Shown here: positions 1 to 20,000 of the stretch, piece after piece
Numbering within the stretch: the stretch's first letter is position 1
Layout of the letters: every line of letters starts with the position of its first letter
IMG/VR virus record: IMGVR_UViG_3300013004_000028
From: an uncultured virus (IMG/VR IMGVR_UViG_3300013004_000028)
Lineage: Duplodnaviria > Heunggongvirae > Uroviricota > Caudoviricetes
Length of the DNA: 20,000 bases
Reading direction: 5' to 3' (one strand)
The notes under the pieces: model-generated
Told to the model about the DNA's origin: nothing
Seen by the model: the letters and a program-made list of their open reading frames with translations, nothing else
The model's database searches: none
Position numbers and translations under genes: made by a program

Positions 1-3000
1 TACACTTCTTTCTTGTCTAAGCTGTACGTTTTTCGCTTTTTCAGCTTCAAAACTTTTATAATCTTGTGTTTGAGTTACCGCAGCTGATCTTCTTAATATA
101 TCAGCTTGTTCTGACCCTCTACCAGTTAATGATTTTGCAGTTATATTAGCTGTCGAGCTTGCATAATTAGGCATAGCGGCGGAGCTAGGATTCATTGATG
201 TGTTAGTTGCTGCAACACCACTACTAGGAACAGTTGTAACACCAGCTCCAGCTACGCTAGGAACCGTTGGAACACTGGCTCCAGCTACGCTAGGAACAGT
301 TGTAACGCCAGCTCCAGCTACGCTAGGAACCGTTGGAACACCAGCTCCAGCTACGTTAGGAACCACTGGGAATCCAGCTCCAGCTGCGCCTGCACTCGCA
401 GCTATTGGAACATTTGCTCCGGCTGAAGCTGCCATTTGGTTATTATTAGCAAAAATGCTATTTACTCCACCAACTCCTTTTATTTCTCTAGCAAAACTTT
501 GAACAGTAGAATCTTGAAAATAAGGATTATTAAATTTTTCATCTAACATTCTTTTAGATTCATCTGCTCCTGATCCTCCTATCTGTATACCTTCTGTAAT
601 TTTTTTTATAGATGCATCGGAAAAAATACTACCTTGATTAGATTTTGCTCTAGCCTTATTTAAATCCCTCAATTTTTGGCCTATATCATCTGCCATAGTT
701 TTTTGCAACTGTGCTTTCCCGGATCTTTCCTCGTTAGTTCTTTTAACTACATTATCTTTGCCGTATCTTTCAGCTTGAGCTTGTTCATCTTCATATTTAA
801 TTCTATCATTCTGCATCTCTAAATTTGATGCTTCGACTAATAATTTTCTTCCTGTTTCAGTCTCTCCTCCGCCTGATCTTTCAGCTTTATCTCTTAATTT
901 TTGTATTTTAGCATCTGTCTCTAATACTGCCCCAGTATTCATAAGTTTTTTAGTATATTGAGGGGGACCAGCTAAAGCACTTTTACCTATCTCAGCTAAA
1001 TTCCTTCTTTGAGATTCTTTTAACTGGTCTTGAGATATTGTATTTATAGATCTTAAGCCATCGGCTTGATCTATTCTTAATTTTTCTATACCTAGTACAA
1101 CTTCTTGATTTATATCAGCTATTTGGGATAAGATTTCTTTTGAGCCATCTGATGATCCTAAACTTTGCTTTATAAGACCTTCTAAAGATGAAAGATCTCC
1201 CCCTCCTTTTAATACAGAACTAGCTTGATTAAGAATATTTGATCTTTGTTCTATAGAAGCATTTTTTGGAATTAATGCTGTAAGCTGCTCCACTGCTTTA
1301 GAAACTATTTCAGTGCCTTTCTTTTCAGCATCTAAATTTAAGTCTTTTGTTTGAAGACTAGCTTGTCTATTTATACCCTCAGCTTCAGTAATTCTTCCCG
1401 ATGCTCTATCCGAGTCTAGTCTGCTTTTTTCTATTGATAAATTAGTTCCCGCTGTTGAAAAATTCTTATAGTTTATCAATGCTGTATCTAAAGTTAAACC
1501 TTTCAATCCTTCATCAAAAACTTTTTGGAAGTCTAAGCTAAACCCTTGTATTCCTGTTTGCACAGTGTCATTCAGATTTTTATTAAAAGTCAAAAGCGCA
1601 GCTGCATATTTATCCATACTTTGTATAGAGCTATCTGTGAATTCTTTATTTAAATCTCCATAAGTTTTACTCGCCATTTTTACTTGAGACTCAGTTAGTC
1701 CTAACTCTGAACCGAATTGAGTTATAAAATCTCCCATACTTAAAGTCCCATTCCCCAATTTATCTATAGCCTCTGAAGCTTCTTTGGATTTAACTTTAGT
1801 AAAATCTATACTATCAATAATAGGATTTAAAAATGTGTCAAAATCTTCTGTTTTGAAATCTGAAGTTTTAGTTTTGTTGCCAAAAACACTAACATTTTCT
1901 TCTCTAGATTTCTTTATTATCTCAGAAGTAACCAAATTCCCTTGACTAAAATTCAGATCTTTACTCTTCTTTTCTTGAAAATTTGCTATAGCTTCTTGTT
2001 TTTTTAAATCACTTTTTTCATTTAATATCGTAGAAATTAATTCCGGATCTTTAATCCCTCCTAATGATTTAGCAAATGTGGATTGAGCTTTAGCTATCTT
2101 TTTTGGATCTCCTCCTGAAGTTTTTAATTCAGAAATTTCATTTTGAGATTTAATAGCTTCTTGCAAAGAAGTAATTTGAGATTCAGTGGATTGAATTAAT
2201 TTTTGGTTGTTATTAGTCAATTCCAATGTAGATGGAACAGCAGCTTTAGTAGCTTTAGTGGCATAATTAAAAGCCCCTGCGAGAACCCCTACAATAGGGG
2301 CAATAGGAGCTAGAGCCGGAACCATAGCTACCATCATTGCGGCTGAAGCTCCAGCTGCGATAGATTCTCCTATATTCTGAACCTCCTTTTGAGCCTTTGT
2401 TTGCTCTTTTCCTTCCTCCGGCGTTGAAAACATCCCAGTTACAGTAGAAGCAGTAAAGGCTAATCCCATCATTTTTGCATTGATAGCTCCAGCTTTTGCT
2501 GCTCTTTTCTCTTTTTTCTCTTGTTTGAGTTCTTGCGGAGTTTTTGTTACTTTATTATCTGAATCGGGTAGATCTCCGCCCATAGGCATTCCTCCTCCCG
2601 CAGGCATTGCTCCTTGTTTCCCCCCCCCTTGTTGACCTCCTCCTTGCAAAATTCCACCTTTCTGGTTCGCGTTTAGTTCTTTTTGTTTAGCAAAATCAGC
2701 TTTGTATTCTTTTCTTATTGAACGTGATTCATTGTTTACGCTTCGTAATCTATTAGCTTTAGCTTTTCTTGCATCTTTTTCTACTTGAAATCTGTTCTCT
2801 ATTTGAGTTCTTGGAAAACTTTGCATCCCTTTTCCTGCCCCTTGTATACCTTTCGTAGGTAAAATCGGAGATCCAAGCTTACCTCCGGGAGTCATAATCC
2901 CAGCTGCCACTGATCTATTGTAAAGTCTATCAGCTCTGATAGAGTCTGCTTTTCTATTCCTTTCTTCTGATCCTACAATTTGACCATCTCTATTTCTGAA

Positions 3001-6000
3001 CAATTTGCTTTGCCCTTGTCCTCCTTTTTTAAATGTATTTTCAACACCTTTCGCTCCTACTCTTCTTTTATTAATTCTATCTTGAGTAAGATTTTTTAAT
3101 ATCTCTTTTCTACTTACAAACTGGTTCTGTGCTGTAAGAGTCGGCTGATATCTCCCCGGAGCTTGAGGTAGTTTAGCCATCTGCGCTTTAGCATTAGTGT
3201 AGTCAATTTTTATATTTCTCCTTTTTCTATCAGCATTAGCTTTAGCATCTCTTTTAGCTTGATCTTGAGGGGAAATGCCTGCTTTTTTGATAGGCGCAGC
3301 ATTTGTGCGAGAAGCTTTTTTTTCGGCTTCAGCAGCTTTTCTTTTAGCTTGGTTTCTTTGAAAAATTTCTCTTGTAGCTTGAAAAGATCCTCCTAAACCT
3401 GATCTTAGACTACTGGGCAAAGCAGGTCTAGCTCTTACGGCTGCTACTTTTTGTTGAGCAGCTTGAGTTTTATCTTTTTTTTCCTGATCCTTGTCTGCAT
3501 TCTTTTGTTTTGCTTCATTTCTTTTCCTTATTTTCTTTAAAGCTCTTTTCTCTTTGGGAGTCGCAAAATTAGGAATGAAACCTTCAGAAGAGGAATTAGG
3601 ATTTTCTCTTGAAAAGCGAGAGCTTAAATAATCATCCACAGTTGGCACTATAACGCTCAAAGCTGTTCTGAGAGAAGGTAGATTGGCTCTTTGGACTGAT
3701 GTTAATAGATTTCCTGTACTATATTGAACTTGATCTAAAACTTTTTTAAAAAATTCTATTTCATCAGAAGAAATGTCGGGAGCTCCATCTATTTGAGATA
3801 TAAGAAGTGATAAAGCATTTGTAGAAGTAGGAGTATTTAGCATACTTCTAATTTTTAAAGCCAATGGACTATTAGCCGCAGTTTTTACTTTAGAGGCTCC
3901 TTGTCTTACCCTGTTCATTAATGAGGGTCTACGAACAGGAATTTCAAAATTAGGAATAAAACCAAAAGCTGAAGTTCTGCTTACCAATCCGCTTGAACTA
4001 TCTCCATAAGTTCTTTTTGTTGTAGGCTCTATTTTCGCCATTTTGGCGAAACTCATCCCCTTGGATAAAGTCTTTTCGTCCTTGTTAAAAACTGCAAGAC
4101 CTTTTGGGTTAGATTTTGTTTTTAAACTAGCTCTTCTCCCAATCTTAACATCTTTTCTTTCAAAACCCGCACTCATTTCCGCGTTTACGGATTCATTTAA
4201 AGCTTTTCTTTCTTGTGCATAAGGAATTTTTGCAGGGGAAAGCCGAGAAAAGAAATTAGGAATAAAGCCTTTTGCAAAAGAAGTCGGTTTACCTCTCAAT
4301 CCTAATCCTTGAATACTATATCCTCTACCTCTTTTTTTATTTGGATTTTTAGAACCCCTTATATCGTCACTTTTTTCGTCAAATCTTTTCGATAGGGGAA
4401 TTAAATTTCCGTCATCATCATACTCTACTAAAGCAGCTGATTTGATTTGTGAGGCATTCGGAACAACTAGCTCAGAAGACATAGTTTTTTCTTGAAGTGT
4501 TCTTCCTGCTATTCCCCTTATTGAGTCATAGGGTATTTTACCCTCCTTCATTAAAATAGCTGTACCTATTTTGTATTTTTCATTTTTTGCACTTCTTGAT
4601 CTTAAAGTGGAAAGAAGCAATGAACGATTACTAATTTTAGCTATTTCTTCAGGACTTAAGTGGCCGTATTTGCCGAGTTTAGCGTAAGCATCATTGATAG
4701 CTATCTCATAATTGACTCTAGCATTTAAATAAGGCATAAACTCATCAGGCAAATTTCCCGTTAAAGGTTTTTGAGCTTTTACATATACTTCGTCTTTCCT
4801 AAATTGAACATCACTAGCTTTTAATCCTAATGCTTTGAGTCTGTCTTCATGTGGTTTTGAATTTACAGATACATCTGACCCACCAATAGATAAAGAAGCA
4901 TCTTCAGCAGTATAATATCCCGGACCAAAATTTAGATCTTTAATCTCTGAACGCAACGGAACCCCTTTATTATAAAAACCTAATCTAACCCCTTTTCTAT
5001 TGTATGGGGAATCTTGAGCTTCTTTTTCAACCATCTTCTTCAAAAGATCTGTATTATTTTTCTCTACAGCTTCTTTATACATTTTATCTTTTTCTGAAGA
5101 GAAATCAAAAGCTGGAGTTTTACTTATTTTAGCTAAACTAGATTCAACTTTTTCTCTTCCGTATTTTGCAATTAAGAAGTCATAAGTTTTTCTATCTATA
5201 TTTCTGGCAAGATTCTTTCCAGATTTTTTATTTCCAACAACGTCTCTAAAAAATGTTTTGTCGGAAGCAAGAGAAGGAGTTGCGAAATTAGGAATAAAAC
5301 CTCTTGAATTAGTTTTTTTGCTATACTCATTAACTTGATTTTTTAAATTTGGATCAATTACATTTGTATATCCGGCATCTATAATAGTAGCTTTACCTCC
5401 AGATTTAACAAACTTGTCGTATAAATCCTGACTTGATTCAGGTACTTTATAGTACTTAACATAGTCCTTAAGCAAATTATTTTTATTTTCTTCAATAAAT
5501 TTTCGACCTTGAGGATTTAAAGTATAATTGGCCCCATGAAGGTCATCCATTTCCAACCCAGCTTTTTTTAATCGGGCTTGCAAAATACGCCCGAAAACTC
5601 CAGAAGCCGCTATACCAACAGAGTCACGAGCCATTGGTTCTTTAATGATCTCTTTCCGAATGCTTTTAGCTCGCAATGCTCTTTCTAAATTATCTGGAAT
5701 TTTAGGTCCTGTAATTCCGTCAACTAGTCTTTTTTCAGCTAATAATTTTGATACTGTAAACTCATCTGTTATTGTTTTTGGTAAATTAGATTCAGATTTG
5801 ACGTTTGCTGTTTTTGTGTCTTTTTTTGTTTCAAATCCTGCAAAAATTCCAGCTGACGAAGAGGGTTTTCTATTATAAAATCTTTTTACCCCTATATCCT
5901 TAGTTAATCTATGAAATGTTCCTTCTGCTCCGCCACCCATAAAAGAAGATTGGAGTGCAAAATTAGGAATAAATCCTTCAGAAGCGGACATACCTTTAGA

Positions 6001-9000
6001 TCTGGGATCTATACCTTCTTTTTTAGCTAAACCCATTCCATTAGCTAAAGTTCCTTCATACTTATTATAAGTGCCAAAACCTTCTGGATTAAAAGGAGTT
6101 CTTAAAGAAGGGTTTTTACCCATTCTTATTTTTCCGATAGGTATTCCAGCTTTAGCTTCTTTGGCTCTAGATTTCTTTTTGGCATTTTGAGTTTCTTTAT
6201 AAGAAAGTTTTGAAGCAAAATTAGGAATAAAACCACTTGATAAAAAACGCTCTAAACCATTTTCTCTTAGCACTTGTTCTCTAGTCTTTTTTCTTCCTCC
6301 AGTGTTTCTCGGTTTATTATATCTTGCGGACAGAATAGCTTGAACCCGATCTTCATCAGATAAAGGAGCTATTTCACTAACAGGCATATTTCTATCCTGT
6401 ACATCAGTTGGTAATTGTCTTTCTGTTAGTATCTGTTGCTGAATTTTCTTATAACTGTTTGTAGTTTTCCTTGCTCTACTTCCTTGTCCTGCTAAATTAG
6501 CCGCCCATTCTTGAACTTTCCTTTCATCATCGGATAGAGGACCTGTTTCTATAGCAGGCATATCACTGTCCGGTACACTCATCCTTTCAGGATAGGCATT
6601 CATTGTCATTCCAACTTCTTTACCCATGTTAGGTAGATCCCTCGCCCTAGTGGAGCCCTGAAAACGTAACTTTGGAATAACTATTTTAGGAACAATTCTT
6701 TTACCATTTACTATCTGTGTTAGAGGTCCGGCATTAGTTTGTCTACGAGTTATTGGATCAATATCATTTAAATCAGGGACAGCTATATAATTGGTTAATT
6801 TTATTCTGTCGTATTTATCTGGAACGCCTTCTGTAAAAAGGGGTAAAAGCATTGGACTTAACTCAGCTATATTTTCAGGAAGAAATCTCCCATATTTATC
6901 TCCAACTTTGGGAGCTGTCCAATCTCCAGCTTTAGCTTCAAGTAAAGAGATTTCTTTATTTTCTATAGAATCTATTGAGAATGCATCGACTGCGTTATTG
7001 CCTTTATTAAATCCGGTGTTTCTAGTCGGAATAAATTTAGGGCCTACTTTTGTTTTATTGGCTTGCTGTATAGCGTATCTTTCAAAAACTCCAGTATAAT
7101 CAGTTTGATCTACTTTGCCATCTTTTCTATTTTTATCTTTAAAGCGATAAGAATCTGGAGCAGATTGCAAAATTGAAGACATTAAATTTCTTCTTGAGCC
7201 CCCTTTATCAGGAATCTTAACTTGAACTTGTTCAAAAGAAATTGTACTAATTTTATCATCAAACTCAACATTTTTATTGCCTCTAGACTGAGCTAAAGCA
7301 AATTGATTCGCAGCATTTACATTATTAGGTAAAAATTGTGATATATCTATATAATCATCAGATTCATCAATTTTACTATTTAAATTAACATTCTTTTTAC
7401 TCTTCGACTTAGGATTATTTATTGGTTCATCAATTATATCATCGACATAATCATCTGTTTGCAGAGCCTTGTACATCCTAGTCGCTCTATCTAATATTCT
7501 ACTTCCAGAATCAGATTCTTGTATTCTCTTTCTTTGTTTCCTAAGCGCTCGTATTTCGTCGGCTTGTTCTGGAGGGGTTATATTTTTTCCAACTGTATAT
7601 ATTTTTGGTGGAAGCTCTCCTAGCCGTCTATTTATTTTATCAATTGCTTTATTCTTTTTTAGAGAAGTTCTTCCCATTGTTTTATCAATAAATGCGGTCC
7701 TATTTTGTATTTGAGGTAAATTAGCTATTAAAAGATCTTCTGACCCTCCCGCAGCTAATCTCCTAATTCCTTTTGTATCTCCTTCTCCAATTGCTTTTCT
7801 TAATTCAGTTCCACTTATACCCTCAGTCCTAGCGTCCTGCACCACTTGTAATCCCTTTTCTGTATATTTTGCGGTTTCATAGAGTCCCTTATCGTCACCT
7901 ACTAATGCAATACTTCCGGGAGTAGGGCTTAGATATCTTCCGTCTGACACTTTAAAAACAGAAGGTATTCTACCTCTGAATTCGGAAGACGGAATAACTG
8001 TTGTTTTGGCTCCAGTCGCTTTTTTTATTAATTGTCTTCTAAGACCTATAGGAAAAACTGAGGTACGATAAGAATGTTTATCGCCTTCCTTAAGTGTAGC
8101 TCCAGAACTAACTCCGAATACTATATTCTCTGGTTCGAAACCTAACGAACGAGCTTGTGTAAACATTTCCTTATGCCCTTCCGTAAATGGGGCAAAAGCT
8201 CCATATGCGAATGCAATTTTCTTCTTTTCAATATTAAGTTGTTTTTTAATTATAGATGTTTTATCACCTTCTCTTTGCAATCTTGCGACAGGAACACCTT
8301 TATTTTCAGCCACTGCGGCTATATAATTAGGGTCTTCAGGATTTTTTCCTACAGTTTCTAGTAATGATTTCCCAGATCTACCTTGATTTGCTATTGGGTT
8401 ATCACTAGCTGCTCTTTTTTTAGCAGACTTTATTTGATCTTCTCTGGATATTTGTAGAGAAATTAGCCTATCTACTCCTCCGAAAAGTCCTTCTTGTAAA
8501 CTCCTTTCAGCATTTGACTGGGAAGCTTTTGTAGCTACGACTTCATCAACTTTGTCAATGTCTGACTCTTGTAGAATTGGTATTCGAGTCGTTTTTCTAA
8601 ATTTACTATCATCGCTCTTTTTTGGTATGCCATATTTGTCTGCATTAAATGCAAGAGAAGTTTTTCCTGACCCCGGAGCACCATAAATTCCAGTAATTCT
8701 TTTTAAACCTCCGGTTTTTCTTTTTTGCATAGCATAATTACCTAAATGCTCCCAATACTCATGCGTTTTTGAGTTGCCAAGTCTTTCCATTTCTGAATTA
8801 ACTATCTGTGCGTATTCAGGATTAGCTAAAACATCGCCATCTAATATACCAACTCTTCTAGTAATTTCTGCAAAATTCGGAATAAAGCCTTTGCTTGAAA
8901 AGTAAGAAGGAAGAGCCGCCGTAGAATTTTCTTGTCTTTTAATTAATGTGTATGGCTTTTCAAAAGATATAGGTTCTTTGATTTTATTTTTGAAAAATGG

Positions 9001-12000
9001 AAACTTTGATCTTTTATCTGTTTTTGGCAATTCTAAAGCTTTGGTTTGTAAAGCTTTTGAAACCAAATTATCTCTAGTTATTTCTCCCGCTTTAACTTCT
9101 GCTATCCCCTGCCTCTTTGAATTGATTATGTCCATTCTTGCACCTTTACCAGTTGCTAATACAGATGCTTCTTTATTTATTTCATTAAACGCTCTTTGTC
9201 CTGTTTTCTCAAACATATTCCCACCTACTTTAATAGCGAATCCATTTATTTGATTTTCGATAGAATCATTCTTTTCGCCTTCTATTAAAGGCATAGATGA
9301 GTCTTTAACTTCACCACGATTTCTTAAATTATCAATTAATAATTTTACCCCATCTTCAGTATATCCATTTTTTAGGCCTATATTAGTTATAAATTTTGCT
9401 TTATCTTCTGTAAATTCTCCTGCAAGTTTTTTCTTTATGCCTTTGATATAATCCGGAGTATTTAATGATACAACATTATATTTTAAATTTTTTATAGTAT
9501 CAACACCAACATCTGCAACACGAGAAGATTGTTCTCCTGAAATTTTACCTGAATATTCGATTGATTGTAATTGTCCATCATCATTTTTATTATATTTACT
9601 TATATCCTTTTTTTTAATTTTTCCTATTCCTTTTCCCCTCTCCAAAGAGGCTTTTGCGAAATTTGGAATAAAGCCTTTGCTAAATGATCTACGTTTATAT
9701 TCGTTAATTTTTTCCTTTGCTTCTTTGCTTCTTGCTTCTGCCATGCCAGCGTCCACAATAACAGCTTTGCCTCCAGCCTTTACGAAATCTTCATAAAGTT
9801 GGTTATCTGAGTCATATGATGCTCCCGCTCTACGCGAAGACAAATAATCTAAATGTTTTTTTAAGAAATCTTGACCTTTGGCGTTTACACTGTAATTTTC
9901 GCCAATTAGATCGCTCATAAGTACGCCAGAATCGTACATCTTACCCTCTAATATTTTTCCAAAGCCATTCGATGCATCCCTTCCAATTGACTTAATAGCC
10001 ATTGGATCTTTTATTATTTCTTTTCTAATACTGCTTGTTCTTACGGATCTATCTAATGTGTCTGGAATTTGAGGTCCTGTAACCCCCGGAATAAGGTTGC
10101 CTTCCGATAAAAGTCTGGATATCGAATATTCCCTTGTGACTTTATCTTGTATTTCTCTTCTACTTTGGTTTTTGTAAAATCTTTTTACGCCCACACCTTC
10201 TGAGAGTTTATGAAAAGAACCTTCTACTCCTCTTCCAATCTCCCTAGAGGTTTTTACGAAATTTGGAATAAAGCCACTTGAACGTAATACCCCATTCGAA
10301 GACACTTTAAATTGTTCTTGTTCATAAGGGTTTATACCAGTTTTTTTAATAGACTCTTCTTTATGTTTTTTACCCCCTTTTGAATTTGGAGGTGGATTAA
10401 TAAAATATTTTTTCTTAGATTCTGGTACAAAACCTTTGGAATTATTTGATGGTATTTTACTTGCTGTTTCAGCAGTATTCATGACCCCACCCACAGGAGA
10501 ATTAACAACAAGTCCCGAAGCATAACTGGAACTTAAAGCTCCTTTTTTTTCTGCCATTTTTACTTCAGGAGAAAAGCCATTAGAATAAGTCGGGATATAA
10601 CCTTTTGCTTTATTTTTTCCTCTTTTATTAGCTGCTAATCCTACTGTAACAGCTTCACTTACCTGAGCTATACCTTGTCTTCTAGCCATACTCATCATTA
10701 ATTCTTCTAAAATCTGTGTTTTCTCTACTAAACTTGTAGTTGTCGCTAATCTATCTACTAAGCCTTTATTGCCCATCAATATAGCTTTATTAACTGACAG
10801 TTGCATTTTTTCATCAACTAGAGAAGCTTTTTTCAAACCGGATAAAGCCTGAACTGCTGTAAAAGCATCTTTCGAAATTTTAAATAATAATCTACCAATA
10901 ATACCTATTAATAAGTATGCCCCCGGCCCAGCTAATGCAGAACTTATACCATTAAGTATAACTTTGCCTATTGAAAGTCCTGCCTTTTCACCTCCATCCG
11001 CTGCTGCCCCCAAATTAAGAGTGTCTAATATTTTATTGCCAATACCCACAAAACTATCTAAAATAGGTTGTACAGTTACTTTTCCTGTTTCTGCTAAAAA
11101 TTGAGTAAGATTATTCTTTAATTTTTGCAAATTAGCATCTGTAGTCTCTGTTAAGATTTTTAATCTTTCAGCTGCGTTTCCAGAAGAATCAGAAGCTACT
11201 CTAACAGCTTTATCAAATAAACTATACTCTCCATTTAAAGACTTTAATGTTGCTTGAAGAGTATTGATTTGATATACTCCGGCTACTTGTTCAAGAACGA
11301 ATGCCCTTTGACTATCTGATAAACTGTCTAATTTATTAGATAAATTCGTAAGGACTTCAATTTGTGATTTAAATTCTCCATTAGAATTTTCAGTAGCTAT
11401 GCCTATATTATTTAATACCTCTTGAACTGATGTTCTAGAAAGTCTAGTAAAAATTGTTTTTAAGCCGTTGGATATAACTGGAGCTCCCCGAGCAGAAACC
11501 TGTTGAACTACAGATATCAAAGATGCAATTTCTTTTAGTTCTATACCAGCTGCACTAGCTACGCTACCAACTCTTTTTAAACCGTCAGATATTCCAGCTG
11601 CACTAATTGCGAATGCATTGTCAAGAGAAACAATACTATCTACAACATCTTCATAAGTTAAAGCTTCATCGGTGAAAGTATTTATAGCAGCTGTTAAATT
11701 CTCAACAGTTTGAGCCGCATCGGTTCCAGCAATTTTAGAAAAAGCAAGAGCGGCATTTGTAGCCTTCAATGTCTCTTCTACTGACAAACCCTGCCTAGCA
11801 AATTCAGAGGCAGCTGCGGCGGCCACATCGAAACTCTGGCCTGTAGCATTAGCAACCTTAAAAAGCTCTGATGAAAATATCTGTAAATTAGAATTAGATG
11901 TTTGTAATATAGCTTGAATTCCAGCTAATTGCTTTTCAAGTTTTACAGAGTCTGTGAAAAGTCTTGTAAATGCTGTGGCTAATCCATAAACGACTGTGGT

Positions 12001-12219
12001 TGTAGCTGTAAAAGCTAAAACTCTAGCGGTAGCAGCATCTAAACTGCCTGAAAACTTATCGAAATCACCTGTAATTCTGCCAAGGGGCAAACTTCCACCT
12101 TTTAAATTTAGATTAAAACCTTTCTTTTCAAACAGATCTCTACCTTTTTTATGGGTAGTCAGAATAGCTGCATCTGCTTTATCTGTATATATTTGTAATC
12201 CGTAATTAATTTCGTCCAT
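1..12219 (-). CDS. Giant phage tail tape-measure protein with internal effector cassette array (3' end outside window, at least 4073 aa)
   Basis: ATG at 12219 (MDEINYGLQIYTDKADAA...). I found no in-frame stop down to base 1, which explains its absence from the ORF track. The N-terminus reads like a TP901/PhageMin_Tail-type core (SLDAATARVLAF...LFKVANATGQSFDVAAAAASEFARQGLSVEETLKATNAAL...ARGAPVISNGLKTIFTRL). It lies downstream of the tail tube and chaperone genes. The C-terminal part has hydrophobic helices and coiled coil. Confidence 0.93.
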   Translation of the reverse strand, partial: MDEINYGLQIYTDKADAAILTTHKKGRDLFEKKGFNLNLKGGSLPLGRITGDFDKFSGSLDAATARVLAFTATTTVVYGLATAFTRLFTDSVKLEKQLAGIQAILQTSNSNLQIFSSELFKVANATGQSFDVAAAAASEFARQGLSVEETLKATNAALAFSKIAGTDAAQTVENLTAAINTFTDEALTYEDVVDSIVSLDNAFAISAAGISDGLKRVGSVASAAGIELKEIASLISVVQQVSARGAPVISNGLKTIFTRLSRTSVQEVLNNIGIATENSNGEFKSQIEVLTNLSNKLDSLSDSQRAFVLEQVAGVYQINTLQATLKSLNGEYSLFDKAVRVASDSSGNAAERLKILTETTDANLQKLKNNLTQFLAETGKVTVQPILDSFVGIGNKILDTLNLGAAADGGEKAGLSIGKVILNGISSALAGPGAYLLIGIIGRLLFKISKDAFTAVQALSGLKKASLVDEKMQLSVNKAILMGNKGLVDRLATTTSLVEKTQILEELMMSMARRQGIAQVSEAVTVGLAANKRGKNKAKGYIPTYSNGFSPEVKMAEKKGALSSSYASGLVVNSPVGGVMNTAETASKIPSNNSKGFVPESKKKYFINPPPNSKGGKKHKEESIKKTGINPYEQEQFKVSSNGVLRSSGFIPNFVKTSREIGRGVEGSFHKLSEGVGVKRFYKNQSRREIQDKVTREYSISRLLSEGNLIPGVTGPQIPDTLDRSVRTSSIRKEIIKDPMAIKSIGRDASNGFGKILEGKMYDSGVLMSDLIGENYSVNAKGQDFLKKHLDYLSSRRAGASYDSDNQLYEDFVKAGGKAVIVDAGMAEARSKEAKEKINEYKRRSFSKGFIPNFAKASLERGKGIGKIKKKDISKYNKNDDGQLQSIEYSGKISGEQSSRVADVGVDTIKNLKYNVVSLNTPDYIKGIKKKLAGEFTEDKAKFITNIGLKNGYTEDGVKLLIDNLRNRGEVKDSSMPLIEGEKNDSIENQINGFAIKVGGNMFEKTGQRAFNEINKEASVLATGKGARMDIINSKRQGIAEVKAGEITRDNLVSKALQTKALELPKTDKRSKFPFFKNKIKEPISFEKPYTLIKRQENSTAALPSYFSSKGFIPNFAEITRRVGILDGDVLANPEYAQIVNSEMERLGNSKTHEYWEHLGNYAMQKRKTGGLKRITGIYGAPGSGKTSLAFNADKYGIPKKSDDSKFRKTTRIPILQESDIDKVDEVVATKASQSNAERSLQEGLFGGVDRLISLQISREDQIKSAKKRAASDNPIANQGRSGKSLLETVGKNPEDPNYIAAVAENKGVPVARLQREGDKTSIIKKQLNIEKKKIAFAYGAFAPFTEGHKEMFTQARSLGFEPENIVFGVSSGATLKEGDKHSYRTSVFPIGLRRQLIKKATGAKTTVIPSSEFRGRIPSVFKVSDGRYLSPTPGSIALVGDDKGLYETAKYTEKGLQVVQDARTEGISGTELRKAIGEGDTKGIRRLAAGGSEDLLIANLPQIQNRTAFIDKTMGRTSLKKNKAIDKINRRLGELPPKIYTVGKNITPPEQADEIRALRKQRKRIQESDSGSRILDRATRMYKALQTDDYVDDIIDEPINNPKSKSKKNVNLNSKIDESDDYIDISQFLPNNVNAANQFALAQSRGNKNVEFDDKISTISFEQVQVKIPDKGGSRRNLMSSILQSAPDSYRFKDKNRKDGKVDQTDYTGVFERYAIQQANKTKVGPKFIPTRNTGFNKGNNAVDAFSIDSIENKEISLLEAKAGDWTAPKVGDKYGRFLPENIAELSPMLLPLFTEGVPDKYDRIKLTNYIAVPDLNDIDPITRRQTNAGPLTQIVNGKRIVPKIVIPKLRFQGSTRARDLPNMGKEVGMTMNAYPERMSVPDSDMPAIETGPLSDDERKVQEWAANLAGQGSRARKTTNSYKKIQQQILTERQLPTDVQDRNMPVSEIAPLSDEDRVQAILSARYNKPRNTGGRKKTREQVLRENGLERFLSSGFIPNFASKLSYKETQNAKKKSRAKEAKAGIPIGKIRMGKNPSLRTPFNPEGFGTYNKYEGTLANGMGLAKKEGIDPRSKGMSASEGFIPNFALQSSFMGGGAEGTFHRLTKDIGVKRFYNRKPSSSAGIFAGFETKKDTKTANVKSESNLPKTITDEFTVSKLLAEKRLVDGITGPKIPDNLERALRAKSIRKEIIKEPMARDSVGIAASGVFGRILQARLKKAGLEMDDLHGANYTLNPQGRKFIEENKNNLLKDYVKYYKVPESSQDLYDKFVKSGGKATIIDAGYTNVIDPNLKNQVNEYSKKTNSRGFIPNFATPSLASDKTFFRDVVGNKKSGKNLARNIDRKTYDFLIAKYGREKVESSLAKISKTPAFDFSSEKDKMYKEAVEKNNTDLLKKMVEKEAQDSPYNRKGVRLGFYNKGVPLRSEIKDLNFGPGYYTAEDASLSIGGSDVSVNSKPHEDRLKALGLKASDVQFRKDEVYVKAQKPLTGNLPDEFMPYLNARVNYEIAINDAYAKLGKYGHLSPEEIAKISNRSLLLSTLRSRSAKNEKYKIGTAILMKEGKIPYDSIRGIAGRTLQEKTMSSELVVPNASQIKSAALVEYDDDGNLIPLSKRFDEKSDDIRGSKNPNKKRGRGYSIQGLGLRGKPTSFAKGFIPNFFSRLSPAKIPYAQERKALNESVNAEMSAGFERKDVKIGRRASLKTKSNPKGLAVFNKDEKTLSKGMSFAKMAKIEPTTKRTYGDSSSGLVSRTSAFGFIPNFEIPVRRPSLMNRVRQGASKVKTAANSPLALKIRSMLNTPTSTNALSLLISQIDGAPDISSDEIEFFKKVLDQVQYSTGNLLTSVQRANLPSLRTALSVIVPTVDDYLSSRFSRENPNSSSEGFIPNFATPKEKRALKKIRKRNEAKQKNADKDQEKKDKTQAAQQKVAAVRARPALPSSLRSGLGGSFQATREIFQRNQAKRKAAEAEKKASRTNAAPIKKAGISPQDQAKRDAKANADRKRRNIKIDYTNAKAQMAKLPQAPGRYQPTLTAQNQFVSRKEILKNLTQDRINKRRVGAKGVENTFKKGGQGQSKLFRNRDGQIVGSEERNRKADSIRADRLYNRSVAAGIMTPGGKLGSPILPTKGIQGAGKGMQSFPRTQIENRFQVEKDARKAKANRLRSVNNESRSIRKEYKADFAKQKELNANQKGGILQGGGQQGGGKQGAMPAGGGMPMGGDLPDSDNKVTKTPQELKQEKKEKRAAKAGAINAKMMGLAFTASTVTGMFSTPEEGKEQTKAQKEVQNIGESIAAGASAAMMVAMVPALAPIAPIVGVLAGAFNYATKATKAAVPSTLELTNNNQKLIQSTESQITSLQEAIKSQNEISELKTSGGDPKKIAKAQSTFAKSLGGIKDPELISTILNEKSDLKKQEAIANFQEKKSKDLNFSQGNLVTSEIIKKSREENVSVFGNKTKTSDFKTEDFDTFLNPIIDSIDFTKVKSKEASEAIDKLGNGTLSMGDFITQFGSELGLTESQVKMASKTYGDLNKEFTDSSIQSMDKYAAALLTFNKNLNDTVQTGIQGFSLDFQKVFDEGLKGLTLDTALINYKNFSTAGTNLSIEKSRLDSDRASGRITEAEGINRQASLQTKDLNLDAEKKGTEIVSKAVEQLTALIPKNASIEQRSNILNQASSVLKGGGDLSSLEGLIKQSLGSSDGSKEILSQIADINQEVVLGIEKLRIDQADGLRSINTISQDQLKESQRRNLAEIGKSALAGPPQYTKKLMNTGAVLETDAKIQKLRDKAERSGGGETETGRKLLVEASNLEMQNDRIKYEDEQAQAERYGKDNVVKRTNEERSGKAQLQKTMADDIGQKLRDLNKARAKSNQGSIFSDASIKKITEGIQIGGSGADESKRMLDEKFNNPYFQDSTVQSFAREIKGVGGVNSIFANNNQMAASAGANVPIAASAGAAGAGFPVVPNVAGAGVPTVPSVAGAGVTTVPSVAGASVPTVPSVAGAGVTTVPSSGVAATNTSMNPSSAAMPNYASSTANITAKSLTGRGSEQADILRRSAAVTQTQDYKSFEAEKAKNVQLRQERSV
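224..388 (-). repeat. 33-bp tandem repeat, five copies, encoding VAGAGV(T/P)TVPS
   Basis: Units start at 224, 257, 290, 323 and 356 (ctaggaacagttgtaacaccagctccagctacg and variants). The first four alternate between two variants. Confidence 0.93.
3964..4251 (-). repeat. ~80-95-aa repeated unit of unknown function, copy B
   Basis: AEMSAGFERKDVKIGRRASLKTKSNPKGLAVFNKDEKTLSKGMSFAK aligns with copy A (shared SLxTxxNPxGxxxxNKxExTLxxGMxxAK). Confidence 0.8.
4270..5283 (-). other. ADP-ribosyltransferase domain, ART-PolyVal-like (cassette in tape measure)
   Basis: YKEAVEKNNTDLLKKMVEKEA..KGVRLG, NFGPGYYTAED, EVYVKAQKPL, YDSIRG and SELVVPNASQIKSAALVEYDDDGNLIPLSKRFDEKSDDIR match, from memory, the motif series and C-terminal QIKSA..YDDxGNxIPLSxRF..DIR signature of ART domains in polyvalent proteins. 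Confidence 0.78.
5302..5958 (-). other. Protein-kinase-like domain 2 (paralogue of domain 1)
   Basis: MGGGAEGTFHRL, IGVKRFY, DEFTVSKLL, MDDLHGANYTLN (D 5542-5544) and IIDAGY (D 5377-5379). It is collinear with domain 1 (GITGPKIPDNLERALRAKSIRKEIIKEPMA vs GVTGPQIPDTLDRSVRTSSIRKEIIKDPMA). Confidence 0.82.
5977..6216 (-). repeat. ~80-aa repeated unit of unknown function, copy A
   Basis: EAKAGIPIGKIRMGKNPSLRTPFNPEGFGTYNKYEGTLANGMGLAK aligns with copy B at 3964-4251. Confidence 0.8.
6780..7150 (-). other. PD-(D/E)xK nuclease-like domain 2 (in tape measure)
   Basis: YTGVFERYA (7081-7092), NNAVDAF (D 6985-6987) and ISLLEAKAGDW (E 6937-6939, K 6931-6933). It shares the GxxFE/GxFE ... D ... ExKAG pattern with domain 1. 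Confidence 0.62.
7700..8225 (-). other. HIGH-class nucleotidyltransferase (cytidylyl/NMN-adenylyltransferase-like) domain (cassette in tape measure)
   Basis: KIAFAYGAFAPFTEGHKEMF has the GxFxPx(T/H)xGH motif (8173-8202). FPIGLRRQLIKK, IALVGDDK and RTEGISGTELRKAIGEGD (the ISxTxxR motif, ~7790-7830) follow in the expected order. Confidence 0.82.
8260..8871 (-). other. P-loop NTPase/nucleotide-kinase-like domain (cassette in tape measure)
   Basis: Hydrophobic strand plus Walker A, ITGIYGAPGSGKTSLA (8659-8682). Later RLISLQISREDQIKSAKKRAASD resembles the lid region of nucleotide kinases. Confidence 0.66.
8890..9657 (-). other. PD-(D/E)xK nuclease-like domain 1 (cassette in tape measure)
   Basis: GGNMFEK (E 9208-9210), ARMDII (D 9130-9132) and IAEVKAG (9091-9099) give the E...D...ExK order and spacing of the restriction-endonuclease fold. 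Confidence 0.62.
9676..10257 (-). other. Protein-kinase-like domain 1 (cassette in tape measure)
   Basis: IGRGVEGSFH Gly-rich loop (10219-10236), GVK lysine (10183-10185), alphaC-like REYSISRLL, catalytic loop SDLIGENY (D 9910-9912), and DFG-like IVDAGMA (D 9751-9753), in canonical order. Confidence 0.78.
10700..12219 (-). other. Tape-measure core domain (N-terminal part of the giant CDS)
   Basis: Ala-rich helical repeats (EFARQGLSVEETLKATNAAL, AISAAGISDGLKRVGSVASAAGIELKEIASLI, EQVAGVYQINTL) followed by a hydrophobic segment GISSALAGPGAYLLIGIIGRLLF (~10880-10950). Confidence 0.88.
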
Positions 12220-12250
12220 ATTGGTCTATTCACCTTGTTCCTTTAGCCGG

Positions 12251-12266
12251 TAATATATATTACACT
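12251..12266 (-). promoter_or_regulatory. Conserved GTGTA upstream motif (candidate phage promoter) before the tape measure
   Basis: AGTGTAATATATATT, about 42 nt before the ATG. The same core occurs in all four large intergenic gaps. Confidence 0.55.
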
Positions 12267-12312
12267 ATAGGTTATGAAGTAAGAAGAATTATAATTTTAT
12301 GTCAAAAATAAA

Positions 12313-13187
12313 TTATGAATTCTTAAAAGACTCAGCTGCATTTCTTAATGAAGATGCTTCTGCTTGTTTATTAGGTTTATTTTTATTATTCATTTCTGTT
12401 ATAAAAATTCTTTCAATCTCGTCCGCATCATTTCTTTCTTCGTCTGTTATATTTTCTGTTTTTTCTAATAAAGATATAAAATACTTTGAATAATCAAATA
12501 AGGTTAATTGATTCTGAGTTAAAAGATAACCATTTTTATTAAAATAAGATTCTGGATTAGAAGAATTTTTTATATAATCTCTAACATTTTTAAGAGCTGA
12601 CAACTTTCTTATATTAGATGTAGAAAATAAATCTAAACAATCTTTATAGCAATCAACAACTTCGTAAAGTTCTTGGTCACTGAAATCTATAACATCTTCA
12701 ATCTCAAATACTTTATTTTCTAATTTTTCATCTTTATAAAAACTTAAATGTAAAATATATTCAGTAATAGGCCCATTAGATAATGTTTCTGCTGATAAAT
12801 TTAATAAATTTTCTTTTTTAGATAACAAAGAGTTATAAGATTTCCTATAATCTGTTATTATATTATCTATTTCATCTAATTGCTCGTCAAACATAGCCTT
12901 AGATCTTTTTGATAACATTAATTGAATGTTACTACTTAAAGATTCTAAAGTCTTCTCTTGTTCTTCAGACCATAAATTTTCTTTAATTTTTTTATCCAAT
13001 AAGTCTTTCTTACTTAAAGCACCTTTAGCTTTATAGTTTTCTATAGACTTAAAAGTATAGTCATCAATAAGAGCGTACTCTATTGAACCAAAATGTTTTA
13101 AATATACTTTTTTTTTAAAAAAGTCTCAGAATACCCACGGCAAATATCAAAATAAATGCCGCCTGTATTTATGGCTTTGAATTCCAT
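12313..13187 (-). CDS. Pre-tape-measure protein (putative tail assembly chaperone), ~291 aa if read through a -1 shift at ~13107-13122
   Basis: ATG at 13187 gives MEFKAINTGGIYFDICRGYSETFLKKKYI-stop. The -1 frame is open from ~13125 (FFKKKVYLKHFGSIEYALIDDY...) into the tracked 228-aa ORF, whose TTG start at 12999 is probably not the true start. The gene lies directly upstream of the tape measure. Confidence 0.7.
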
Positions 13188-17988: not shown

Positions 17989-18624
17989 TTAACCGTATAT
18001 TCTTGGATGATCAAAATTTGTTATAGAAACTTGTGTTAAAGTTCTGCCTTGAGCCAAATCCTTAGATAGTTGAAGGCCCCTATTATAAAATTTTAAATTA
18101 TTAGAGCTAACAAGATATGGGGCAAACCCTTTTGACAAAGATATTATTTGATCATCTGTTAATGCTCCGCTCCAAATTGCTGCTTCTGCTATTCTACCAT
18201 TGAAAAAAAATCCTCTTGATGTGCTCCATCTAGAACCTAACATAATATTATTAATTCCAACTGGATTTGAACTAGTTGTATTAGTAGCTTTTCCTCCTCC
18301 ATTTAAAAAAATAGATCTACCAGTTATACTTGTACAAACAGCTGCTGCATGATGCCATGTATTTGCTGTATATCCAATTGTGCTAGTAGCTGTTCTGTCT
18401 ACAGCTCCTACTAAAGAACTTATAGCTATAAAATCTCCTGCTAGATCTCCTCTGTTTACCATTTGAAATCTATCAACTCCATTAGCTACTCCAAGAGACA
18501 TTAAAGTTCCTCCAGCAGTAACATTAGCAGGATTAAACCAGCAAGCCATTGTAAATGGAAAAGTGGTAACTGGGGTAGATGTTGATTCTATATAAGAACT
18601 TGTACCATTTAAAGATAATGCCAT
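17989..18624 (-). CDS. LamG / concanavalin-A-like lectin domain virion protein (211 aa)
   Basis: ALSLNGTSSYI, FPFTMACWFNP, NTWHHAAAV, IFLNG and FFNGRIAEAAIWSGALTDDQI form the typical Laminin_G_3 motif series. Confidence 0.88.
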   Translation of the reverse strand: MALSLNGTSSYIESTSTPVTTFPFTMACWFNPANVTAGGTLMSLGVANGVDRFQMVNRGDLAGDFIAISSLVGAVDRTATSTIGYTANTWHHAAAVCTSITGRSIFLNGGGKATNTTSSNPVGINNIMLGSRWSTSRGFFFNGRIAEAAIWSGALTDDQIISLSKGFAPYLVSSNNLKFYNRGLQLSKDLAQGRTLTQVSITNFDHPRIYG

Positions 18625-18625
18625 A

Positions 18626-20000
18626 TTAAGCGATAGTTAAGAGGTCTACATAGAGTAATTGAGCGTCCCCAGCTAATGTATCAAGGGCGTTAGCTCCAGA
18701 TCTTACAATATGGAGTCTAAAAGAATCTCCTTGACTGAGAGAGTCTATTGCTGTACAGTTTAAAGATAAAGTGGATATAATTCCTGCCGTACCATTCGTA
18801 GCGCTAACACCTGTAGCAAAAGGACCAAAAGAATCTCCATCTAAATCATGATTAGCATTTTCAAATCGTGCGCCCCAGAAAACATTTCCAAGTATACCTG
18901 TTAGAGCTATCCATTCAACATTAACTCTTATTCCAGATATCAAATTAGATCCAGTAGGAATAATACCTTGGAAAATCCCGCTCTCATTCAAAGCTGCATC
19001 AAAATTAAGAACTGGTATAGAATTTCTTGTATCTAAAGTTGCAAATCCACCACCGGGAGGAATATTATCTAAAGCAGTAAAGTATGATAAATTTTTAGCA
19101 TGAACTAAGTTAGTTAATTGACTTCCGTCTCCACTAAAGAAACCAGCTCTAAGAGTTCCATGCCCAGCGGCACCATCTGACACTTTTAATATTCCAGATG
19201 ATAGTCTGGTGAATCCAACATCCGGATTGCCACCTATTCCTGTTCCGAAAAGGACTCCTTTGTTATTAACTCCGACTGCATTTACAACATTAAGATTACC
19301 TTGTATTCGTGTATCTCCATTGATGTATAACCTATCTGAGGTCGAAGTAATAGAATTATTTATAGATATATTTCCAGCAGAGTCCATCCAAAAATAATAA
19401 GTAGTTCCTCCTCCTCCCGCTGGATTATTCAATATACCAGCATTATCTTGTTTTCCTATACCAAAACTTCCAGCACTATCATAAAGAAAAATAGCAGCTT
19501 GTGTTCCAGCCACTAATGCTCCAGCTCTTCCTCCTACATAGCTAAAAATATATCCAGCTGTACCAACTGTGCTTTCCATAAGCATTTGACCTGTTACAGC
19601 TCTTGCATTAATTAATTTTCCAGTTATACTAGGACTTCCTATTCTAAGAGATCTACTAAGAAATATATCTTCAGAATTGAAACTTCCGACAGTATCTCTT
19701 TGAACTAGGGTATTAGCAACATTTAATGATGTTCCAGTTGTTCCTCCTCCCCCTCCAACACCTTGAATACCTTGTATACCTTGTACAGATAATCCTTGAA
19801 TGCCTTGAATACCTTGGGCACCTTGAACTCCTGTTCCAGTAGCTCCTATAATACCTTGGATACCTTGAACTCCTTGAGTACCTTGTACCCCTTGAGTTCC
19901 CTGCGCCCCAGTAGCTCCAGTAGCCCCAGTAGCTCCAGTAGCTCCAGTAACTCCTCTAATACCCTGTATCCCTTGGATACCTTGGATGCCTTGGATACCC
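18626..20000 (-). CDS. Collagen-repeat tail fibre protein (5' end outside window; the tracked 319-aa ORF is only its C-terminal part)
   Basis: The frame stays open upstream of 19585 to the window edge: Gly-X-Y repeats (GIQ/GAT/GVQ), then [26 protein letters not shown] (fibre-type NxxVxRDxxGxF motif), then a beta-rich C-terminal region. Confidence 0.85.
19760..20000 (-). repeat. Collagen-like Gly-X-Y 9-bp repeats
   Basis: Repeats of accttgaat/accttggat/tccagtagc encode GIQ, GVQ, GTQ and GAT triplets. Confidence 0.92.

Follow-up and report, generated by a model that had tools for sequence, protein, structure and literature searches.

Tape measure proteins lie in the tail of the phage, are expelled first and help to form a channel through the cell envelope. 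Embedded cell-wall hydrolase motifs or domains are known from several of them, including those of mycobacteriophage TM4, phage T5 (pb2) and the TP901-1 type, and in these a functional domain of the tail ruler is delivered at infection, much as is proposed below. The tail location, early expulsion and channel role are restated in the available parts of PMC10770324 and PMC13190303. Another kind of cargo is found in gp96 of Thermus phage P23-45 (PMC10770324, available part). In this tape measure of 5,002 residues, the N-terminal portion is a virion RNA polymerase, which transcribes pre-early genes and, as the authors propose, acts at the start of infection. A second described system is that of the polyvalent proteins (Iyer, Burroughs, Anand, de Souza and Aravind 2017, PMC5512222, available part), which occur in phages and conjugative elements, are proposed to accompany the DNA into the host and have undergone extensive domain shuffling. 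Here we describe a 20,000-nucleotide stretch of an uncultured virus of the Caudoviricetes (IMG/VR record IMGVR_UViG_3300013004_000028), hereafter the window, in which a tape measure gene encodes an array of exchangeable, enzyme-like cassettes separated by a short peptide motif that we call the fence. The kinds already known are the enzyme-bearing tape measure and the polyvalent protein; an array of predicted enzyme cassettes fenced within a tape measure is what appears to be new here.

The hydrolase-bearing rulers of TM4, T5 and the TP901-1 type have a single envelope-directed activity, whereas many cytoplasm-type enzyme folds, in an exchangeable array, are predicted here. Like gp96 of P23-45, the protein is a giant tape measure (5,095 versus 5,002 aa) with putative enzyme domains, a likeness at the level of description; gp96 has one N-terminal enzyme, while eight fenced cassettes follow the PF10145 core of the protein described here, and neither a fence motif nor an array or exchange of cassettes is mentioned in the available part of the P23-45 paper (PMC10770324). 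Like the polyvalent proteins, it appears to combine several unrelated effector-type domains (kinase-like, P-loop, nucleotidyltransferase and ART-PolyVal-like) in one giant polypeptide, and ART-PolyVal (PF18760), to which one of the cassettes is linked, belongs to the polyvalent proteins (PMC5512222, available part). The parts of polyvalent proteins are described as separated by metallopeptidase domains, none of which was found here, where most cassettes match no family; moreover, "tape measure" or "tape-measure" occurs 0 times in the available part of that paper, and the fence peptide and the tape-measure scaffold fall outside its description (PMC5512222). The initial annotation of this DNA knew of no description of such an architecture, and no published account of fenced cassette arrays in tape measures was found in a full-text literature search that included the motif itself, with subscription journals largely outside its reach.

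The fenced tape measure gene

The genes and domains placed by coordinates in this report lie on the minus strand of the window, and coordinates are window positions unless given in amino acids. The tape measure gene occupies 1..12219 as an open frame of 4073 codons that is still open at window position 1. When followed on the contig (L005:44..13114), the same frame gains an extra 1,022 codons before its stop, placing the end of the gene 3069 bases beyond window position 1 and giving a protein of 5,095 aa, of which the window holds codons 1-4073. A database protein, P0003, has the same length (5,095 aa) and is a 100% match over the queried region. Three IMG/VR contigs from different data sets (124, 170 and 71 kb) hold the window DNA and are 100% identical across the approximately 30 kb compared. 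All sampled words of the cassette region were found in 24 of the 24 lake-water metagenome runs listed, runs that may stem from one sampling campaign and may include the source; among these 24, no RNA data holding the region were found. In each of the four lake-water runs examined, the gene is covered by independent contigs that differ from it at 0 positions, and single contigs span window positions 312-12400 (X3 and X7), 2974-12400 (X1) and 2951-12400 (X12). Because the contigs are identical and single contigs bridge the gene in these runs, it is a genuine gene and no product of chimeric assembly, which the initial annotation had named as a danger to its reading. The frame and the fenced tape measure are both confirmed.

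By its sequence matches, the array-bearing protein is a phage tail tape measure protein of the PF10145/TP901 family. The PF10145 (PhageMin_Tail) core lies at aa 123-314 (11278..11853), with an E-value of 2.9e-30 and 106 bits against a cut-off of 33.2, and it is part of an N-terminal block (aa 1-539) that is conserved in 87 of the 91 tape measures compared below. All ten PHROG matches to the first 380-500 aa are tape measure families (E 1e-9 to 6e-37). Two hydrophobic segments were called by the Kyte-Doolittle scale (19-residue window, at least 1.5), the first at aa 420-446 (10882..10962), upstream of the array, and the second at aa 3286-3320 (2260..2364), downstream of it. The array thus located between them has a net charge of +109 over the cassette region. 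It is followed by a basic, low-complexity linker (2365..3564), which together with the second hydrophobic segment (aa 2886-3320) contains 20.5% lysine plus arginine and has a net charge of +50. The remainder (aa 3321-5095) appears by composition to be a C-terminal ruler region, presumably helical, which begins within 1..2259 and runs off the window; over the C-terminal ~1,700 aa (1,675 aa measured), 32% of residues are charged and 3.6% aromatic. The tape-measure N-terminus and downstream hydrophobic segment that had been read from a frame of at least 4073 aa therefore stand, at a true length of 5,095 aa. Tandem repeats of the VPTVPSVAGAG type occur in the ruler (window ~115-340, aa ~3960-4035), and their copy number may vary or stay unresolved, because contigs from all four runs break at window 242-337.

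Exact copies of the peptide GFIPNF occur nine times in the protein, at aa 649-654 (10258..10275), 849-854 (9658..9675), 1111-1116 (8872..8889), 1996-2001 (6217..6234), 2082-2087 (5959..5976), 2307-2312 (5284..5301), 2651-2656 (4252..4269), 2753-2758 (3946..3963) and 2880-2885 (3565..3582), and a variant, GYIPTY, lies at aa 540. The nine fences bound eight cassettes (M1 to M8, aa 655-2879). Modules separated by nine such motifs had been described in the initial annotation, and its span of 3565-10610 corresponds to aa 537-2885, from the variant motif through the last fence. By chance, 5.9e-5 copies of GFIPNF would be expected per protein, and none of 2000 shuffles contained a single copy.

The consensus in this protein is a decapeptide, [A/F/S]-[S/A]-x-G-F-I-P-N-F-A, which across the family (173 sites in 25 proteins) relaxes to [A/F/S]-[S/A]-x-G-[F/Y]-[I/V]-P-N-F-A. 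The second position of the motif is F in 149 of these sites, the trailing A is present in 127, and S or A stands two residues before the motif in 166; the G, P and N are invariant by construction of the search pattern. The nine copies in this gene differ at synonymous codon positions. As a peptide the fence is under strong selection, and it can be argued that it has a role at the protein level, because the peptide is strictly conserved while its codons vary; the data are compatible with a cutting site, a docking element or a neutral insulating joint alike. In a separate observation on codon choice, the isoleucine of all nine fences is encoded by ATT, a codon used for 43% of the gene's isoleucines (ATA, 51%), and the glycine, proline and phenylalanine codons of the fences vary.

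More distant relatives have fence variants of the form AAGG[F/Y][I/V]P. A similar pattern occurs in gpH of phage lambda (L072, J02459), where two ATGG[F/Y][T/V]G motifs at aa 734 and 779 bracket a 40-residue unit containing GEFV, an arrangement that recalls a unit between two fences. The motifs share with the fence variants the order of a small residue, two glycines, an aromatic and an aliphatic residue, a resemblance of few residues only, and at E<=1 phmmer detected no homologue of gpH in the set of 91 proteins.

Contents of the cassettes

Cassette M3 was modelled over its first 479 aa, together with 16 relatives (pLDDT 85, pTM 0.78). Its second domain (aa 1332-1506, 7702..8226) is, by the predicted fold, confirmed as a (T/H)xGH nucleotidyltransferase of the PPAT/NMNAT type. 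Residues T230, G232 and H233 (TEGH at aa 1346-1349) are invariant in 17 of 17 rows of the alignment, as are S353, T355 and R358 of a second motif, ISGTxxR; we take ISxTxxR to be the family-defining motif of the HIGH-motif nucleotidyltransferases. A match to PF01467 barely passes (22.6 bits against a cut-off of 21). Residues 216-390 of the model superpose on PPAT, NMNAT and NadM structures with Z-scores of 13.4-14.8 and an rmsd of 2.5-3.0 over 140-160 residues in most rows. The best superposition is on the PPAT 3x1k_A (Z 14.8, rmsd 2.5, 142 aligned), followed by NadM (Z 14.1), NMNAT (Z 13.6) and a further PPAT (Z 13.4), and since these top rows are tied, NAD-type, CoA-type and other substrates are indistinguishable. 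The nucleotidyltransferase named in the initial annotation is thereby upheld by motifs and fold together.

The first domain of M3 (aa 1117-1331, 8227..8871) is modelled as a P-loop NTPase domain, probably kinase-like. Its Walker A residues G67, G69 and K70 (GAPGSGKTS, pattern GxxGxGK) are invariant in 17 of 17 rows, and the sole structural match listed for model residues 5-213 is a zeta toxin, 6epg_B (Z 8.7, rmsd 3.5, 153 aligned), which agrees with the P-loop kinase proposed from the sequence at the outset. The sequence search with this domain returned chance-level rows only (adenylate kinase, dephospho-CoA kinase and RAD51, E 0.3-1.1). A helical extension follows the second domain, to about aa 1595 (7435..7701). 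The P-loop/nucleotidyltransferase module is the most widespread of the cassettes compared, being present in 15 of 27 database proteins. In a search dependent on shared words, one stand-alone homologue of near length was found for it, which lies on a 2.5 kb contig and is probably a fragment; a search of this kind with M5 found none.

A divergent ART-PolyVal-like ADP-ribosyltransferase domain is predicted in M6 (aa 2313-2650, 4270..5283) through transitive homology. Out of 1.84 billion, the cassette matches 494 representatives at E<=1e-3, which are giant proteins with few exceptions, and PF18760 is present in 11 of the 16 matches scanned. Its aa 65-316 align with residues 357-603 of P0064 at E 3.7e-12, and P0064 has PF18760 at 391-571 (E 4e-31). 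M6 is called ART-PolyVal-like because the matched stretch of P0064 contains that domain, while a direct PF18760 match for M6 was not obtained even at E<=10. Where typical members have YHGT, M6 has the R of VRLGFY, while in its GPGYY and in the Glu of SSELVV it lines up with the members; these residues may have the corresponding catalytic roles. The tail of the cassette, ELVV..SQIKSA..NLIPLSKRF..DIR, is common to giant proteins of the polyvalent type. The ADP-ribosyltransferase of the initial annotation is in this way supported. One of the proteins matched by M6, P0031 (4,993 aa), has an M6-like domain together with MutS domain I (PF01624, E 8e-27).

Minimal protein-kinase-like modules are suggested by the motifs of two cassettes, M1 (aa 655-848, 9676..10257) and M5 (aa 2088-2306, 5302..5958), which are paralogues with 38% identity (E 4e-50). 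In all seven rows of an alignment with five relatives, G8, G10, G13, F15, K25, E66, D139, N144, D194 and G196 are invariant, corresponding to a Gly-rich loop, the Lys of GVKRF, a Glu, D-L-H-G-x-N and I-I-D-x-G, together the complete set of protein-kinase-like motifs; the His of D-L-H-G-x-N is an Ile in M1. The two kinase-fold enzymes that had been claimed are accordingly retained on motif evidence. Minimal effector kinases of the OspG/NleH type, as well as gp0.7 of phage T7, are ~200-residue kinases that are delivered or made early and act on host proteins. Of the named atlas clusters, those nearest to M1 are APH, ABC1/RIO1, OspG and YrbL (0.93), which are leads only, with no significant sequence or structural match obtained, and M1 and M5, unlike OspG/NleH and gp0.7, are internal modules of a predicted virion protein.

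Two further modules have the residue pattern of restriction-endonuclease-like enzymes. In M2 (aa 855-1110, 8890..9657), the pattern FE ... RMD ... EVK is invariant in the four members of its family, and the atlas comparison gave Tox-REase-7, -3 and -9 at 0.86-0.87, under the 0.9 line and a lead only. The third part of M3 (aa 1596-1995, 6235..7434, with its core at 6550-7371) has FE ... VD ... LLEAK, with E97, D129, E145 and K147 invariant in 9 of 9 rows; it has no fence before it here and is a fenced cassette of its own in relatives. The best match of its model in a wide structural search reached Z 4.7, below the level deemed meaningful and only suggestive given the quality of the model. Among the structural matches listed, about 30 of 50 are nucleases by title, comprising restriction enzymes, junction resolvases, FAN1, viral cap-snatching endonucleases and defence nucleases, which we take to share one common fold. 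A profile-profile comparison of 21 cassette families detected no relation between the M2 family and that of the M3 third part. The two PD-(D/E)xK nucleases of the initial annotation are thus weakly indicated: their invariant E..D..ExK pattern stood, and the single model made, that of the M3 third part, did not give the fold comparable backing (pLDDT 44, Z 4.7).

The other units are small. M4 (aa 2002-2081, 5977..6216) and M7 (aa 2657-2752, 3964..4251) are conserved paralogues with 36% identity (E 9e-13), and the M4 type (family C5, in 19 proteins) belongs to the kind of unit that usually closes the array in relatives. A pre-array unit (aa 540-648, 10276..10602) extends from the GYIPTY variant to the first fence, and in relatives the separately fenced units F6 and F8 hold this position; the F6 and F8 profiles match one another weakly (hhalign probability 62%), as the best pair among the 21 cassette families. 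M8 (aa 2759-2879, 3583..3945) is an orphan, without a relative among the 591 modules described below and without a family match. For M1, M2, M4 to M8 and the pre-array unit, searches of Pfam, NCBIfam and PHROGs gave sub-threshold, chance-level rows only.

Cassette turnover among relatives

A search with the cassette region returned 26 other proteins of 2,535-6,311 aa, and a search with the locus returned 64 more tape measure open reading frames (ORFs) of 1,935-3,728 aa on viral contigs of 17-83 kb. The compared set is therefore 91 proteins, made up of 27 database proteins (with the one described here) and 64 ORFs of viral contigs. PF10145 is present in 25 of the 27 database proteins, according to the precomputed Pfam column. 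On the contigs of 17-83 kb (L007-L071), the tape measure gene is 5.8-11.2 kb long and accounts for much of the contig. At least three fences were found in 89 of the 91, and the remaining two use a different glycine-rich joint. These two, P0026 and P0028 (5,461 and 6,311 aa), have the P-loop/nucleotidyltransferase module and no GFIPNF, and their joints read GG[L/M]IQ[K/R]FA.GG and FA[T/S]GG[V/L]VPG...D.VPAML..GEFV. No match to the window DNA or to the cassette-region protein was found among 50,697 records of cultured or deposited phages, and two scans of species genomes for a host, limited to a few peptide patterns, found no relatives.

Cutting the 91 proteins at their fences yielded 591 modules, of which 60 are singletons and the others form 44 families. 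Of the 91 proteins, 80 have a small closing unit (C2 or C5), and the stretch between the N-terminal block and this unit is occupied by a minimum of two and a maximum of about twenty cassettes, the order of which changes. The expectation that homologous tape measures would have conserved termini with cassettes varying in number and identity has been borne out across this set. With nine fences and four nameable cassette types, the protein described here is among the richer members of the set. Pfam cut-offs are passed by two of the 33 cassettes chosen to represent relatives, one being a GNAT acetyltransferase and the other a staphylococcal nuclease. Two common families, C3 (~218 aa, in 48 proteins) and C4 (~184 aa, in 26 proteins), have no Pfam match.

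Pairs of close relatives document the exchange directly. Of the five blocks that P0022 shares with P0007, four are 93-96% identical and the small closing unit is 61% identical, and P0007 has an additional kinase cassette. Between L044 and L043, identity is 99-100% in the N-terminal block, the closing unit and the C-terminal part, and L043 has three additional cassettes and two that are replaced. In the pairs L023/L027 and L034/L033, DNA identity turns on or off inside the ~20 bases that encode the fence. Among related phages, whole cassettes are gained, lost or exchanged for others through recombination within the fence codons, and the fence is, at the least, a recombination joint at the DNA level. 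The cassettes of the protein described here also have unequal histories: relative to P0006, identity is 81% in M6, 76% in the N-terminal block, 37% in the C-terminal part and 32% in M2.

At window 3945-3970, 5282-5301, 5956-5976 and 6214-6234, other contigs from the same lake-water runs match for about 21-26 bases at or beside fences and then diverge, which suggests that fence DNA is common to co-occurring relatives in those runs. Apparent deletion variants of the gene, with joints such as 3970->5282 and 3342->5956, were considered and rejected, as their sides consist of only 21-26 bases of fence-coding DNA; they are read as other contigs that share the fence.

Upstream of the tape measure gene, the window encodes a LamG-domain protein (17989..18624) and a collagen-repeat, tail-fibre-like protein (18626..19999). 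Six further upstream ORFs and three large downstream ORFs have no family match, and the layout of the neighbourhood is repeated on a related 42 kb contig. All three IMG/VR contigs stop inside or just past the collagen-repeat gene, in which L002 and L003 have one additional copy of a 147-base repeat (98.6% identical).

Proposed delivery at infection and competing readings

The reading that we favour, at a probability of roughly 60%, is that of the tape measure of a large tailed phage from lake water with exchangeable enzyme-like cassettes, which would be borne in the virion and reach the host at infection as takeover or counter-defence enzymes. According to this reading, the array grew between the N-terminal core with its first hydrophobic segment and the C-terminal hydrophobic segment with its long ruler, and the cassettes would ride in the virion as part of the tape measure protein. 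They would then enter the host at infection, prior to any phage gene expression, and could act there as ready-made takeover or counter-defence enzymes, as has been proposed for polyvalent proteins. The fence might be cut to release the cassettes, or the cassettes might remain tethered at the membrane channel. Delivery is most likely, because tape measures lie in the tail and exit ahead of the DNA; for one enzyme, the RNA polymerase fused to the tape measure of P23-45, such carriage has been shown (PMC10770324, available part).

Several points weigh against this reading. Packaging, entry into the cytoplasm, catalytic activity, targets and an anti-defence role are each things that we infer. The lumen of a tail tube measures ~4 nm, and because at least three folded domains of 190-480 aa should not fit into it, the cassettes would have to be stored unfolded or elsewhere. 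Six of the nine pieces of the cassette region have no match in Pfam, NCBIfam or PHROGs, real matches being confined to the nucleotidyltransferase part, and 31 of the 33 representative cassettes of relatives reach no Pfam cut-off. The model of the M3 third part is poor (pLDDT 44), with its motif residues placed on a predicted helix and two strands. Searches of solved structures returned no kinase, both with phmmer using M5 and with a profile that spanned whole tape measures and was hence weakened. Family searches found no peptidase domain in the protein that could cut the fences, most cassettes matching no family at all. The same kind of search recognised no tail tube, sheath, chaperone or distal tail family among the flanking genes, so that tail type and the usual synteny are unsupported, and the collagen-like and LamG genes of fibre type lie upstream of the tape measure gene, not downstream.

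A more specific version of delivery, which we regard as speculative, sees the tape measure as a standardised platform for injecting interchangeable proteins and makes the fence decapeptide a signal for processing and release or for docking. The fence might be cut by a protease of the phage or the host, or might dock unfolded cassettes in the tail; the cassettes would be freed in the cytoplasm within seconds of adsorption, where the M3 module could remake or modify a dinucleotide cofactor (such as NAD+ or CoA) in opposition to NAD-depleting immunity, ahead of all phage transcription.

Rather less probable is a role as a polyprotein expression vehicle, in which the protein would be translated late, the fences cut during assembly, and the cassettes would act in the producing cell or be discarded, with only the terminal ruler parts in the tail and no delivery to a next host. 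A strictly conserved short peptide at each module boundary is what a processing site would look like, and the geometry of the tail-tube lumen would pose no difficulty for cassettes that never enter it. In addition, gpH of lambda, in which we observed a pair of motifs resembling the fence variants, is reportedly processed near this C-proximal pair. However, excising the middle of a ruler would separate its halves, for which no mechanism of rejoining is known, and the lack of a peptidase domain in the family searches tells against this proposal as well. Moreover, the proteins in which ART-PolyVal-like domains typically occur are ones for which injection has been proposed (PMC5512222, available part), and the large enzyme of P23-45 stays fused to the tape measure of the virion (PMC10770324, available part).

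It is also conceivable, though unlikely, that the cassettes are carried in the virion and are not cytoplasmic enzymes, serving instead as spacers, as parts for envelope penetration or the channel, or surviving as decayed remnants whose motifs are relics. The lack of a recognisable family for most cassettes would fit, as would the failure of the nuclease-patterned cassette to give a confident fold and the motif-based nature of the kinase assignment. Relics would not be expected to keep Walker A, TxGH, ISGTxxR, the kinase G-loop, Lys, D..N and DxG, and E..D..ExK invariant across diverged members, nor to yield a confident nucleotidyltransferase model with Z-scores of ~14 to nucleotide-binding enzymes. 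We know of no role for any of these cassette folds in cell-envelope work.

Still less probable, in our estimation, is a polyvalent protein that is packaged in the head or located elsewhere inside the virion and has a PF10145-like domain without being a tail ruler. Such a protein would account for the want of a recognised tail tube, sheath or chaperone gene alongside and for the upstream position of the fibre-like genes, and it would avoid the very long tail that 5,095 aa implies if the whole protein measures length. It is opposed by the match of the N-terminal 380-500 aa to ten tape measure PHROGs, by the hydrophobic segment after the array and the ~1,700 aa of charged, low-aromatic sequence beyond it, which are tape-measure-like, and by the identical layout in relatives on contigs of 17-83 kb. 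Finally, an assembly artefact, in which unrelated genes were joined in a chimeric contig via the short repeated fence sequence, can be dismissed, for although the 18-base fence-coding stretch occurs nine times and other contigs of the same runs match it for ~21-26 bases to give short-sided "joints", the three identical IMG/VR contigs, the four runs without a difference (two of them covering window 312-12400 unbroken) and the 24 runs with all sampled words, possibly of one campaign, leave it next to no room.

If the favoured reading of cassette delivery by the tape measure is correct, phages with long tails would possess, beside proteins packaged in the head, another way to supply the host cell with enzymes made in advance, and this second route would be modular, with cargo swapped among relatives at a fixed peptide joint. 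It would account for tape measure genes whose length greatly exceeds what the tail needs. Hundreds of unannotated cassette families would become candidate early takeover or counter-defence proteins; the 91 proteins compared here alone hold 44 families and 60 singletons, mostly without a Pfam match. The array would also offer a natural scaffold for putting foreign proteins into phage tails, and the fence motif makes the class easy to spot in metagenomes.

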